Positions 3,121-9,757 are shown, numbered from the stretch's first letter. The stretch: 64,000 nt of DNA from Blastocatellia bacterium (GCA_035331565.1 DAOLKO010000017.1:30832-94831); one strand, 5' to 3'. The notes: a model not told the origin generated them from the letters alone. Numbers and translations: made by a program.

Positions 3121-4524
3121 TCAAAGAACTTTGCTGATGGCCACGCGAAAGCCCTGATCGTTGCGGCGCAGCGTGGGATGGCCATAATCAATGCGAAAGG
3201 CCGAACGGCAGTTGACGGCCGCGTCCACCCACGAACAACCGCGAATTACGCGCGGACGATCCCAGTGGGCGTGCTTCAATATCAGGCCGCTGAACTTCAG
3301 CGTTTGCTCTTCACCGATTTCGGTTTTCAGCCTGGCAAGAATCTTTTCTTCTCCGACAAACACATAATCCTTGAGCCGCCGCAGTTTGGTCAGCGTGTCA
3401 TCCGGCATCCCCTGCGACCGCAAGACGACCAGCGTCTGTTCGACAATGTTGAAGCCCTGCTCCTGTCCTTCCCACGAAGACCCGTCCGTCGGCGCGCCTT
3501 GATAATTCGTATGCCATTGATCCTGGCACCATTCCCAGACGTTGCCGTACATATCGAACAAGCCGAAAGCGTTGGCGCGTCCCAGACTGCCGACCGGAAC
3601 GGTTTTCTCGCGGTATTCGCCTGCGCCCTGCGTTTTCCAGTAAGGGTGATTGCCGTTGTAATTGACGATGGCCGGCGTGATGGTTTCGCCGAAAGCATAA
3701 GGCAGGGAGCTTCCGGCGCGGGCGGCGTATTCCCATTCCGCTTCGGTCAACAGGCGATATGCTCTGCCGGTTCGACGTTCCAACCGGGCGCAGAATTCCT
3801 GTGCTTCAAACCAGGAGACGGTTTCCACCGGCAATTTGTCGTCGTCTTTGAAAGACGATGGATCGGGCTTCAATTCAATTTTGACTTTCGGCCATTGGGC
3901 GACGACGCGCCATTGTTCCCGCGTGATTTCGTATTTGCCCGCCCAGAATTGCGCGACCTTCACCTGATGCAGCGGACGTTCGTTTTCCGGGCCGAGTTCG
4001 CCGGACGCCGCGCCCATGGTGAAAACGCCGCCGGGAACTTCCACCAATTCCAGCCAGATGTCCGAATCCAGCGGTTCGCGAAAAGTCTTCACGGTCTTTT
4101 CCGGCTCGTCCTTGATCTTGCCTCGCCTGTCGTAAAGCGCCGTTTTGAAGCGGATCGTTTCCAGTACCGGCGCAATAGTTTTCGGAGTTTTGCCGGCCGT
4201 AGGCGCGGGCGGAACAGAGTCGGCGTCCAACGTCAGCACAGGCGGCACTGTCGGCGCTGAAACCAAAACCGGCGCAAGCGCGATGGAAGAAACGTCCGCA
4301 ATTTCCGGCAACGAAATCGGCTTAGGTTTTGCGGCAGACGTTTCGGCAACTTTTACGGCTTTGGGTTTTGAAGTCTTTCGTTCAGGGACGAGGATCACGC
4401 CGCCTTGCTTTTGCGCCGCGCCGAACCAACACGAACCGAGCGCGAACAGTAAACACAGCGTCCAGGCGCTGCGAACGGCGAGTCGCCGAAGATGTGTTTG
4501 GGCTTTCATGAAAGGAATCTCCAA
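3121..4524 (-). CDS. FGE-sulfatase (SUMF1-like) domain protein, copy B; N-terminal TM/signal, Pro-rich linker; ~75-aa insertion inside the FGE-like domain
   Basis: FGE-sulfatase domain hallmarks (WLELVEVPGGVFTMG, RVVAQWPK, GNVWEWCQD, RGCSWVDAAVNCRSAFR...GFRVA). Alternative start at ATG 4509. Paralog of 6646..7866. Confidence 0.8.
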   Translation of the reverse strand: MEIPFMKAQTHLRRLAVRSAWTLCLLFALGSCWFGAAQKQGGVILVPERKTSKPKAVKVAETSAAKPKPISLPEIADVSSIALAPVLVSAPTVPPVLTLDADSVPPAPTAGKTPKTIAPVLETIRFKTALYDRRGKIKDEPEKTVKTFREPLDSDIWLELVEVPGGVFTMGAASGELGPENERPLHQVKVAQFWAGKYEITREQWRVVAQWPKVKIELKPDPSSFKDDDKLPVETVSWFEAQEFCARLERRTGRAYRLLTEAEWEYAARAGSSLPYAFGETITPAIVNYNGNHPYWKTQGAGEYREKTVPVGSLGRANAFGLFDMYGNVWEWCQDQWHTNYQGAPTDGSSWEGQEQGFNIVEQTLVVLRSQGMPDDTLTKLRRLKDYVFVGEEKILARLKTEIGEEQTLKFSGLILKHAHWDRPRVIRGCSWVDAAVNCRSAFRIDYGHPTLRRNDQGFRVAISKVL

Positions 4525-4544
4525 GGTAGGTCTGCCCGCGCGTT

Positions 4545-7866: not shown

Positions 7867-7882
7867 GTTCCTCCGATTTCTT

Positions 7883-9757
7883 TCACTCCGGGACGGATTC
7901 GAAGACCACATCAAAAACCAGTGGCTGACTGCCGTTCTTCGTCCGGACGCTGATAAACGGCGTACCGCTTCCTTTGATGTCTTCAACTTTGTCAGGAAAA
8001 TTGCCGCCAACCAGAGTTTTCAGTCGCTCTGTTCGAGCTGCGGATTTCAGAAATTCGTTTCTTTCCGTAAGAGGTGTTTCTTGAGCCACGGACAGGGCCA
8101 GATCAGCAGAGTTTTTAACTTCTCTTGTCGCCCAAAGTACGCTGATGCGCATTTTTTCATTAGGCTTGACGCCTTCTATCCACCCCTGCTCCGGAAAAAT
8201 AAATTCGGTATTCGATTTAATCGTCTGGTCTTTTAGAAAAGGAGTCAGGCGATTTTTCTCGTCCAGAGCAAACAGATACAAATGACCATCTTCCTGGGAT
8301 TTCAAATGTATTTTGACGCCTTGTTTTGAAGTCAATTGAGGATTCGTGACAGGGGACGTTTGCCCTTCAAGCTCGAACCAATACCGCAACTTCTCAACCG
8401 GCGCGATTTCATTGCCGGGAGAAGGCGACGGCACAAGCGGCGTTTGCACGATTGCGTTTCTTTCGCGTTGCAGCCACAGCAAATAGGCCAACGACAGCAG
8501 AATCAGCACGGCGGCTACAGCAATCAGGGAAATACGAATCCGCGCTTTTTTCCGCAGGCTTTCGATGCTGACGAAAGTTTGCGAATCGTCCTGCTTGATG
8601 GCGGGGGGCGCGGGCGAATCGTTGATATTCGGTTTGTAATCCGGGCTGGTGCGAACGGATTGGCCGCGCGTCAGGTTGCCGGCCTGATTGCGGCGTTCGA
8701 TTTCCTTTTTTCGTTTGCGATTGAAATTGTCTTCTTCGCGGCGCGAGTCCTTTTCCATCTGGCCGGTTGTGACAATCAGAGTATCCGGCTGCGGCGTTTG
8801 AGCTTTTGGCGGACGGTCGGCGATGTCCTGTGTGTGGCGGGGTTCGTTGTCCGCCGACGGCGAATGAATCTTTCCGCTGTTGGCGCGTCTGAGGGAGCCG
8901 GATGGAGTGCGCTCGACGTTTTGAACAGCCCAGCGCAGAGCTTCGCGCATGTCAGCGGCGCTTTGATAGCGTTGCGTCCGATCCAGCTTCATGGATCGGG
9001 CAATCATTTCCGTCAGAATTTCCGGGACTTCTTCGTTGATCTCGTGAATCGGTCGTAATGGATCCGGCACGTCATAACGAATCACTTCTTCGCGAACTTT
9101 GGCGCTTTCGGGAATTTCGCCGGAAAGCAGGTGGTGCAGAGTTGCCCCCAGCGAATAAAGATCGCTGCGGGCGTCCGTGCCTGAAGCTTTTATTTGTTCC
9201 GGCGGAGCATAGTTGAGAGTGAAACCGTGAACGCTGCGGCCTCCGGCTTTGGTCGAAGCGTTGGCGTCTTTGGCCAGACCGAAATCAATCAGGAAAAGGT
9301 CGCCGCTCGGCGTCAGTTTCAGATTTTGCGGTTTGATGTCGCGATGAATAATCGGCGGCTGCTGGTTGTGAATGTATTCGAGCGCATCCAGCAAACGATC
9401 CGCCCACTGCATTACCTGTCGCCATTCAAACGGCTTGTTTTCATTTTTCAGTTTTTCGCTCAGCAATCCATCCAGGTCATGGCCGGGAATGAACTCCATG
9501 ACCAGAAACTGTCCGGTATCTTCGACAAAATGATCGCTGACTTTGGGCAGGGCGTTGTGGCGCAGACGCGCCAACATGGAAGCTTCGCGTTTGAATTGTT
9601 CGCGCAACCATTCCTGAGTGAAAAAGGTTTCCTTGACGGCGACCTGTGCATGCCCCAAATGAATGGCCTCCGCTTCGTAGACGGTTCCCATGCCGCCTTG
9701 CGCCAGGGGACGTTTAATCAGATAGCGATTTTGCAGCAGGGTTCCGTTTGCAAGCAT
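7883..9757 (-). CDS. Ser/Thr protein kinase (intact catalytic motifs), disordered linker, TM helix, extracytoplasmic C-terminal domain
   Basis: GGMGTVY Gly-loop, VAVKE, IIHRDIKPQNLKL, IDFGLAKD and YAPPEQ are all present. The C-terminal ~180 aa are homologous to the pseudokinase C-terminus. Confidence 0.85.
   Translation of the reverse strand: MLANGTLLQNRYLIKRPLAQGGMGTVYEAEAIHLGHAQVAVKETFFTQEWLREQFKREASMLARLRHNALPKVSDHFVEDTGQFLVMEFIPGHDLDGLLSEKLKNENKPFEWRQVMQWADRLLDALEYIHNQQPPIIHRDIKPQNLKLTPSGDLFLIDFGLAKDANASTKAGGRSVHGFTLNYAPPEQIKASGTDARSDLYSLGATLHHLLSGEIPESAKVREEVIRYDVPDPLRPIHEINEEVPEILTEMIARSMKLDRTQRYQSAADMREALRWAVQNVERTPSGSLRRANSGKIHSPSADNEPRHTQDIADRPPKAQTPQPDTLIVTTGQMEKDSRREEDNFNRKRKKEIERRNQAGNLTRGQSVRTSPDYKPNINDSPAPPAIKQDDSQTFVSIESLRKKARIRISLIAVAAVLILLSLAYLLWLQRERNAIVQTPLVPSPSPGNEIAPVEKLRYWFELEGQTSPVTNPQLTSKQGVKIHLKSQEDGHLYLFALDEKNRLTPFLKDQTIKSNTEFIFPEQGWIEGVKPNEKMRISVLWATREVKNSADLALSVAQETPLTERNEFLKSAARTERLKTLVGGNFPDKVEDIKGSGTPFISVRTKNGSQPLVFDVVFESVPE

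Follow-up and report, generated by a model that had tools for sequence, protein, structure and literature searches.

Hanks-type pseudokinase families, fusions of kinases with FGE-sulfatase domains, and kinase-DUF4384 proteins have already been described in bacteria. The STK Atlas reports a 'Proteo1' family with C-terminal transmembrane (TM), FGE-sulfatase or DUF4384 as alternative organizations (bioRxiv 10.1101/2025.01.12.632604), and the same work together with PMC12599244 names the pseudokinase families ActPs1-3 (including the M. tuberculosis MviN pseudokinase domain), CP1, DYD, DLHK, and GLW. Neither of these two sources mentions Acidobacteria or tandem kinase/pseudokinase gene pairs. Here we analyzed a 64,000-nucleotide stretch (hereafter the window; GCA_035331565.1, DAOLKO010000017.1:30832-94831) from the metagenome-assembled genome (MAG) of an uncultured soil-type Blastocatellia bacterium (Acidobacteriota), in which four minus-strand genes form two copies of a unit composed of a Hanks-type kinase gene and a gene for a protein of the FGE-sulfatase fold. 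We designated the upstream unit KA/FA and the downstream unit KB/FB; KA retains the catalytic residues of a kinase and KB appears to be a pseudokinase. To the systems described previously, this locus adds a kinase/FGE pairing split over two genes, a duplication of this pair that yields one active and one pseudokinase unit, and graded degeneration of the second kinase in sister genomes.

Outside the clade of the window kinases, the closest kinase domains (44-51% identity to KB) belong to fused kinase-TM-FGE kinases (P0026, P0028, and P0029; P and L numbers denote homologous proteins and loci, respectively), and the FGE part of P0026 aligns with the standalone partners (E ~1e-92), also over their N-terminal extension. 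In both the fused kinases and the window units, the kinase is predicted to lie inside and the sensor outside. Unlike the fused kinases, the window locus encodes the FGE domain as a separate, probably anchored protein, supplies the kinase with its own immunoglobulin (Ig)-like ectodomain, and carries the unit twice, with a pseudokinase in one copy. Compared by description only, KB resembles the named pseudokinase families in its kinase fold, substituted VAIK Lys and HRD Asp, conservation under selection, and presumed non-catalytic role, whereas it differs from them in its recent origin within a canonical clade, its position adjoining an active paralogue, and the graded loss seen among its orthologues. 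FA and FB share their fold with FGS/C-type-lectin sensors, with TvpA, the variable protein of a diversity-generating retroelement (DGR) (PDB 2y3c; PMC7159879), and with PvdO (PDB 5hha). TvpA, like FA and FB, has only the second Cys of the FGE pair. Unlike TvpA/DGR and conflict systems, however, the window locus has no DGR repeat and no NTPase or vWA core nearby, and unlike the TvpA and PvdO structures, FB contains a helical insert of 68 aa. Among eukaryotes, receptor kinases pair with pseudokinases in HER2-HER3 and in plant receptor kinases with pseudokinase co-receptors. The window locus is alike in concept, since an impaired receptor paralogue is retained beside an active one and each has its own ectodomain, but it is bacterial, of independent origin, and apparently leaves ligand recognition to a separate lectin-like protein.

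Gene structure and paralogy of the two units

All four ORFs of the locus were confirmed on the minus strand. KA (7883-9757) encodes a bitopic Hanks-type Ser/Thr kinase of 624 aa (Pfam Pkinase, 5e-38), and FA (6646-7866) encodes its FGE-sulfatase-fold partner of 406 aa, which has no helical insert (Pfam FGE-sulfatase, 7e-50). KB (4545-6512) encodes the pseudokinase paralogue of 655 aa (Pfam Pkinase, 2e-22), followed by its FGE-sulfatase-fold partner FB (3121-4509; 462 aa counted from ATG; Pfam FGE-sulfatase, 1e-50). The ORFs, Pfam matches, and pairwise alignments thus agree with a preliminary description of this DNA, in which the four genes were taken as two paralogous kinase and FGE units. Identity is 55% over 284 aa between the kinase domains of KA and KB (E = 8e-99) and 48% between FA and FB (E = 7e-102), an extent of paralogy that, judged from the alignments, is far beyond chance. 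At the DNA level, repeats of 135-182 nt with a spacing of ~3.3 kb are found at 6049-6230 and 9282-9463 (71%) and at 3637-3771 and 6961-7095 (73%). While the 16-20-nt gaps originally given within the pairs hold for KA-FA (16 nt), orthologues and public gene calls place the start of FB at the ATG at 4509 instead of the TTG at 4524, 15 nt upstream, so that the KB-FB gap becomes 35 nt (20 nt with TTG). The FGE genes have GGAG(G) ribosome-binding sites (GGAGG in the case of FA), and the kinase genes lack an obvious Shine-Dalgarno sequence. The locus sequence is identical to a contig of another Blastocatellia MAG, GCA_035333725.1. No sign of a horizontal-transfer island was found at the locus, where GC content and skew are ordinary and the setting is one of stable housekeeping synteny. 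A candidate third FGE copy, a 406-aa gene upstream of KA on Logan contig L003, turned out to be a truncated Wzt gene with the very sequence found in the window, and was rejected.

KA was previously described as keeping every catalytic motif, and we indeed found VAVK, FKRE, HRDIKPQN, DFG, and APPEQ; in its G-loop (AQGGMG), the first Gly is replaced by Ala. With a score of 131 bits against PF00069 (cut-off 31.7), KA would by sequence criteria be a catalytically competent Hanks-type (eukaryotic protein kinase, ePK) Ser/Thr kinase. It has a single TM segment (aa 409-429) and a Pro/Ser-rich cytoplasmic linker unrelated to that of KB.

The corresponding motifs of KB are VQGDTA in the G-loop, VEIR, HRGIKPQA, DLS, and LPLEQ, as seen in a gap-free KA/KB alignment, a 122-sequence alignment, and structure alignments with StkP and PknB. 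Accordingly, the β3 Lys is replaced with Arg (VEIR), HRD with HRG, and the catalytic-loop Asn with Ala, and both the Phe and the Gly of DFG are lost, whereas the DFG Asp (DLS), the αC Glu, and the APE Glu are retained. The activation loop is ~9 residues shorter than that of KA. The losses of Lys, catalytic Asp, Mg-binding Asn, and DFG Gly claimed for copy B are therefore supported by the alignments, with the DFG Asp staying in place, and the reading frame is intact. An HMMER alignment to StkP that set the β3 Lys opposite Glu was dropped in favor of the gap-free, 55%-identity KA/KB alignment, in which Lys is replaced with Arg. KB nevertheless scores 80 bits against the same PF00069 cut-off and matches the StkP and PknB structures at 1e-28 to 1e-22. 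Defining a pseudokinase as a kinase fold without at least one of the VAIK Lys, HRD Asp, and DFG Asp, we regard KB as a genuine, presumably inactive pseudokinase by the usual sequence definition, because the β3 Lys, HRD Asp, and catalytic-loop Asn are replaced on a kinase fold. The TM helix and homologous periplasmic tail expected in this copy were also found, as a single TM segment (aa 447-464) and a homologous C-terminal domain. Between the kinase domain and the TM segment lies a cytoplasmic linker of ~120 residues (5313-5678, minus strand; aa ~279-400), of which 69% are E, R, K, Q, or D; it likely forms a long single charged helix or coiled coil, and is 90.8% identical to that of the orthologue.

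We estimated the selection on copy B from the ratio of nonsynonymous to synonymous substitution rates (dN/dS) against the 89%-identical orthologue P0002 (locus L010). Over the gene as a whole the ratio was 0.24; by region, it was 0.27 in the kinase domain, 0.20 in the linker, and 0.24 in the TM segment and ectodomain. These values resemble those for FB (0.18), FA (0.29), and the C-terminal part of KA (0.27). Intact KB orthologues are present in L005, L009, L010, and L013. Taken together with the conserved promoter of its own described below, these values argue that KB is maintained by purifying selection and is not a decaying pseudogene. Catalytic constraint on its kinase domain seems to be relaxed, because this domain is 88.1% identical to that of its orthologue, compared with 98.6% between KA and its orthologue P0016; the ectodomains show the reverse pattern (90.0% for KB and 81.4% for KA). 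Across the B clade of kinase domains 119 positions are invariant, versus 184 in the A clade, and they cluster at the N-terminus, WADRLL, KPQ.LKLT, and αF-αG (DLYSLGATLH...VPDPL), while the catalytic motifs vary.

Ectodomains, FGE-like partners, and promoters

Each kinase ends in a predicted periplasmic C-terminal domain (CTD), which is Ig-like in KA (7886-8395, minus strand; aa ~455-624) and consists of an Ig-like β-sandwich and a helical hairpin in KB (4548-5051, minus strand; aa ~488-655). The two CTDs are homologous, with about 33-38% identity. A weak match to DUF4384 (PF14326) was obtained for KA (E = 0.0018, 18.7 bits versus a cut-off of 27) and none for KB; the homologue P0092, which has a precomputed PF14326 match, also matches the CTD profile at 4e-41. 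Searching 1.84 billion proteins with this profile gave 697 representative clusters, in which the domain is always C-terminal.

The window locus does not have the fused kinase-TM-FGE architecture, its kinase and FGE parts being on separate polypeptides. The ORFs are distinct here and in all orthologous loci, each closed by a stop codon, with gaps of 16-35 nt and with ribosome-binding sites of their own. Of the 120 best kinase homologues, 34 contain an FGE domain fused to the kinase and 25 contain the CTD, but none combines the two. In the close clade, moreover, every CTD-kinase is followed by an FGE gene (14 kinase-FGE pairs in 10 loci), and the fused protein P0026 strongly matches both the kinase and the FGE parts. 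Because the fused FGE domain and the CTD are mutually exclusive and close CTD-kinases always precede an FGE gene, this Rosetta-stone evidence supports a reading of the pairs as split receptor and co-receptor. The preliminary description had proposed that a partnership usually fused is encoded here as separate adjacent genes. The genes are indeed separate and adjacent, but the window kinase would not simply be a fused kinase cut in two, because it carries an ectodomain of its own. Our census of split pairs comprises about a dozen loci, including four from a scan of genome contigs and one from a scan of metagenome contigs. The more distant CTD-kinase P0017 (L022/L023) is followed by three FGE paralogues. 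At the exceptional locus L026, a secreted CTD-only protein comes after two CTD-kinases in tandem, which are active and bear zinc-ribbon-like CxxC motifs at their N-termini. Distant degenerate kinases sharing the LPLEQ motif (P0094-P0103) were set aside as a different system, since P0100, the one checked, adjoins a TPR/TonB_C gene and not an FGE gene.

FA and FB adopt the FGE-sulfatase fold, with PF03781 scores of 171 and 173 bits, respectively. The AlphaFold2 model of FB (mean predicted local distance difference test score, pLDDT, 77.5) comprises an N-terminal helix, a disordered Pro-rich tether of ~80 residues, a β-rich extension, and the FGE fold. Foldseek with this model gave PvdO, bacterial and human FGEs, and TvpA as top matches, FGE structures being matched at E ~1e-13, and PvdO is also the best PDB match of FA. 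Both proteins are probably anchored at their N-termini and extracytoplasmic; in a hydrophobicity scan, FA but not FB showed a hydrophobic segment at the N-terminus. The first copper-binding Cys of Streptomyces coelicolor FGE (...GGSYLC...SYC...) is Asp in FA (GGSYED...DC) and FB (GCSWVD...NC), and only the second Cys is kept. Because the first catalytic Cys is replaced, the sequences indicate that FA and FB are not FGE-type enzymes. Against the NCBIfam equivalogs PvdO, GldK, and EgtB, both proteins score far below the cut-offs (PvdO NF051459, 139 and 133 bits versus 500). The statement that FGE domains are usually fused to bacterial kinases goes too far; such fusions exist, but close homologues in the FA/FB subfamily mostly stand alone or are joined to TIR or caspase domains. 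FGS domains have been proposed as ligand sensors in bacterial conflict systems (PMC7159879), and by analogy the fusion pattern of this subfamily would fit such a role.

The 68-aa insert in the FGE fold of FB (3250-3453, minus strand; aa 353-420 of 462; FNIVEQ...HAHWDRPR) is modeled as a four-helix module with helices at residues 357-413 (pLDDT 84-96), and its dN/dS is 0.18. Conserved in all B-type partners, it is shared by L010_F2, L009_F2, L005_F2, L005_F1, and L015_F and missing from FA-type partners, and no counterpart was found in the solved FGE-fold structures matched here. We also considered whether the FGE proteins might be DGR variable proteins and rejected this, as the FA/FB paralogy is the only repeat of the FGE C-terminal region in the 64 kb and no reverse transcriptase is among the called neighbors.

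The string GGCATTATCC (plus strand), noted previously as shared between the upstream regions, does occur before each kinase gene and exactly twice in the window, at 6563 and 9841; by sequence, it is a predicted promoter -10 region. Upstream of KA, a promoter-like site at 9844-9872 (minus strand) reads TTGTCA-17 nt-GATAAT and contains the shared GGATAATGCC string, and a site of the same composition lies upstream of KB at 6566-6594 (minus strand), within the 133-nt FA-KB spacer. These are the only two sigma-70-like matches in the 7.1 kb from 2900 to 10000, and in an alignment of nine upstream regions, drawn from seven loci, the two hexamers hardly vary at all. With a conserved separate promoter before each kinase gene, each kinase-FGE pair looks like a bicistronic operon of its own, giving two operons instead of one. 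No known structured RNA was found in the leaders by Rfam search of positions 1-16000. A CGCCCCGATC box is kept in the 5' leaders of B-type and HRN-type kinase genes (those with HRN in place of HRD), between the -10 element and the start codon, and the CGCCCCGATC 10-mer also occurs just upstream of the KA -35 element. It is located at 6513-6560 and 9876-9889 (minus strand) in the window and in leaders of L005, L008, L009, L010, and L013, and may be a candidate regulator site.

Relatives and the history of the duplication

The gene order IleRS-LspA-Lgt-glycosyltransferase/methyltransferase-(GDPD)-Wzt-kinase-FGE recurs in related MAGs, and at least three of these have tandem pairs in which the B copy is degenerated to varying extents. 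In L010, which carries the 89% orthologue, the kinase states are as in the window; in L009, the second kinase has HCD and NFG; and in L005, both kinases have Lys, HRD, and DFG. Single pairs that are active by their motifs are found in L014 and L015, and single pairs with HRN in L007, L008, and L019. A B-type kinase with intact catalytic residues lies directly after Wzt in L013, where the contig ends inside its FGE gene and a further pair is possible. The loss in B kinases is therefore graded, from the G-loop only (P0004-P0006) through HCD/NFG (P0003) to HRG/DLS (KB and P0002). P0002 still has the β3 Lys (VEIK), and its catalytic Asp and catalytic-loop Asn are lost as in KB. Complete loss of the catalytic residues is confined to loci with an active A-type kinase immediately upstream, namely, the window, L010, and partly L009. 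The HRN singletons P0010 (L007/L008), P0012 (L019), and P0011 keep the Lys, the Asn, and mostly DFG, P0011 also having NFG.

Kinase-domain trees split into an A clade and a B clade with bootstrap values of 81 and 93. The CTD of L005_K1 groups with the B type (bootstrap 93, or 56 once L015_K is added), as do the FGE partners of L005_K1 and L015_K (bootstrap 100). This pattern suggests that the ectodomain moves in step with the FGE gene, whereas the history of the kinase domain differs in part; this fits a functional pairing of ectodomain and FGE gene. The tandem duplication proposed at the outset holds in that the two units are paralogous, but it did not arise recently in the window genome; because both module types are shared with other MAGs, the duplication appears to be old. 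In turn, the nearest relatives of KB are canonical kinases, which argues for an independent and recent origin of this pseudokinase within an otherwise canonical kinase clade. The close orthologues of the locus in L016, L017, and L018 were deposited as 'Heliomicrobium sp.', a Firmicutes genus; proteins identical or nearly identical to theirs are labeled Blastocatellia or Acidobacteriota elsewhere, and the taxonomy of the deposited MAGs has probably been mislabeled.

Possible functions of the units and other features of the window

On balance, we lean toward the reading that the locus consists of two old paralogous operons, each for a membrane kinase and a tethered lectin-like FGE co-receptor, with KB as a maintained pseudokinase. 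In each operon, a single-pass Hanks-type kinase would place its kinase domain in the cytoplasm and its Ig-like (DUF4384-like) domain in the periplasm, and the second product would be a membrane-tethered periplasmic protein with a non-enzymatic FGE/C-type-lectin-like fold. This FGE-like protein may serve as a ligand-binding co-receptor that touches the Ig-like ectodomain of the kinase, performing in trans the task that, in the fused kinase-TM-FGE relatives, falls to the FGE domain in cis. The upstream unit, KA/FA, would then relay the signal by phosphotransfer. For the downstream unit, KB/FB, the output would be non-catalytic, because the β3 Lys, HRD Asp, and catalytic-loop Asn are lost yet KB is retained as a pseudokinase; most likely, KB would be a partner or substrate of an active kinase, with KA as the obvious candidate, or a scaffold acting through its conserved C-lobe and charged linker. 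A working partnership of KA and the pseudokinase KB is plausible, and the confinement of full degeneration to positions below an active A-type kinase hints that KB depends on KA through trans-phosphorylation or allostery. Such dependence is not a rule because of the HRN singletons and the fully active L005 tandem.

Several points weigh against this reading. We infer the extracytoplasmic topology, the contact between the CTD and the FGE-like protein, the inactivity of KB, and any interaction between KA and KB, and the contact and interaction steps are the ones that count against it. The CTD-kinase P0021 has no FGE neighbor, the HRN singletons show a catalytically impaired kinase standing alone at its locus, and the L005 tandem keeps the catalytic residues in both copies, so that pairing needs no pseudokinase. 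KB retains the DFG Asp and the αC Glu, and thus nucleotide binding or residual activity is possible. In addition, the trees are neighbor-joining only and contain few sequences, which weakens the reading, and the co-segregation of CTD and FGE gene could also be explained by one recombination tract because the two are adjacent on the DNA.

Other readings differ in how closely the two units would be connected. KB/FB may be an independent non-catalytic receptor or decoy with its own ligand, neighboring KA only through the old duplication; the helical insert of FB would confer a different specificity, and the unit would signal or sequester without a functional link to KA. The conserved promoter of each pair, the divergence of the FGE partners (48% identity) and CTDs (about 38%) together with the module-specific insert, the B-type units of L013 and L015, which have no A-type unit upstream of them, and the existence of HRN singletons all favor such independence, but full catalytic loss occurs only directly below an active A-type kinase, the B-type kinases of L005 and L013 keep HRD, DFG, and Lys, and a pseudokinase needs an output route, none of which is encoded in the operon. 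We consider independence fairly unlikely. At the opposite end, KA/FA and KB/FB might form one heteromeric envelope receptor, in which two lectin-like co-receptors sit on the Ig-like ectodomains and KB activates KA allosterically or serves as a phospho-scaffold. We think this unlikely; if true, it would be a bacterial counterpart of the eukaryotic receptor kinase/pseudokinase pairs, accompanied in sister genomes by living intermediates on the way to a pseudokinase. The least probable view is that KB is not truly dead, whether because catalysis persists by an atypical mechanism or because the gene is simply in decay. Although the DFG Asp, αC Glu, and APE Glu are kept and the 89% orthologue has VEIK, the catalytic base Asp and catalytic-loop Asn are lost in both KB and this orthologue. 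Decay might be suspected from a kinase domain that evolves about eight times faster than that of KA, but the kinase-domain dN/dS of 0.27, the intact frame in several lineages, and the conserved promoter speak for retention.

Two further explanations concern what the FGE-like proteins would do. They might be periplasmic enzymes or maturation factors (PvdO-like or of the SUMF/EgtB family) whose target is a small molecule or a component of the envelope, with kinases that only regulate, or are co-regulated with, that pathway, for example, the neighboring envelope genes Wzt, glycosyltransferase-methyltransferase, Lgt, and LspA. PvdO is the best PDB and NCBIfam match, and the IleRS-LspA-Lgt-glycosyltransferase/methyltransferase-Wzt-kinase-FGE order is conserved in several MAGs; however, the PvdO model scores lie far below its cut-off, the first FGE catalytic Cys is missing, this FGE subfamily serves as a C-terminal module on kinases, TIR domains, and caspases, the P0017 locus pairs kinase and FGE without the envelope-gene synteny, and the synteny itself may be plain inheritance among close relatives. 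An enzymatic role is accordingly quite improbable. Less probable still is a function in surface surveillance or conflict (anti-phage or anti-competitor), in which the FGS/C-type-lectin domain would recognize an invader-derived molecule and the inactive kinase would be a decoy that draws invader factors away from the active one. FGS domains and inactive enzyme decoys do recur in conflict systems (PMC7159879), FGE relatives occur as fusions with TIR and caspase domains, and the kinase domains match the PADLOC PD-T4-6 and MAD6 models. These matches, however, reflect generic kinase-domain similarity, and the FGE proteins match nothing in PADLOC; the NCBIfam scores are 145 and 93 bits for MAD6 (cut-off 460) and 75 and 53 bits for PglW (cut-off 990). 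There is no DGR template or variable repeat, NTPase, vWA, or effector gene nearby, and the locus has stable housekeeping synteny and ordinary GC without a variable island. The known anti-phage kinase systems PD-T4-6, MADS (MAD6), and BREX (PglW) were thus rejected as identities of the locus, with models below cut-off and no partner genes nearby.

Bacterial Hanks-type pseudokinases have been catalogued, but almost none has been studied experimentally. The locus provides a natural series, in which an active kinase lies beside its paralogue and orthologues range from canonical to fully degenerate, all under purifying selection. It also gives genetic evidence for the testable hypothesis that FGE-fold sensor domains can act in trans with an Ig-like kinase ectodomain, which bears on the FGE-sulfatase and DUF4384 modules common in bacterial kinases, caspases, and TIR proteins. 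Its significance is limited by the uncultured MAG source and the narrow clade.

Directly upstream of KA lies a gene for a Wzt-type ABC ATPase with a Wzt_C domain and without an adjacent Wzm permease gene. It is preceded by a glycosyltransferase-methyltransferase fusion, a GDPD gene, Lgt, and LspA (window 9890-15981, minus strand), an order that is kept with the kinase-FGE unit in several MAGs. Two M28-peptidase genes at 44-1738 (plus strand) and 24296-25993 (minus strand) are inverted paralogues with arms of 60-378 nt that are 72-84% complementary; they bracket ~22.6 kb containing the whole kinase/FGE locus and could serve as an inversion substrate. A third Hanks-type kinase of 1017 aa (35071-38124, minus strand; Pkinase 5e-48) has a C-terminal PD40/WD40-like β-propeller, and receptor-type kinases with a variety of sensor domains are abundant in the window genome. 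An 1831-aa protein (44006-49501, plus strand) has internal DNA repeats with a period of ~180 nt (families D1-D4, 60-76% identity) and He_PIG Ig domains, and its gene adjoins those of a 622-aa BACON/He_PIG protein (42095-43963, plus strand) and a large outer-membrane β-barrel (49658-53215).

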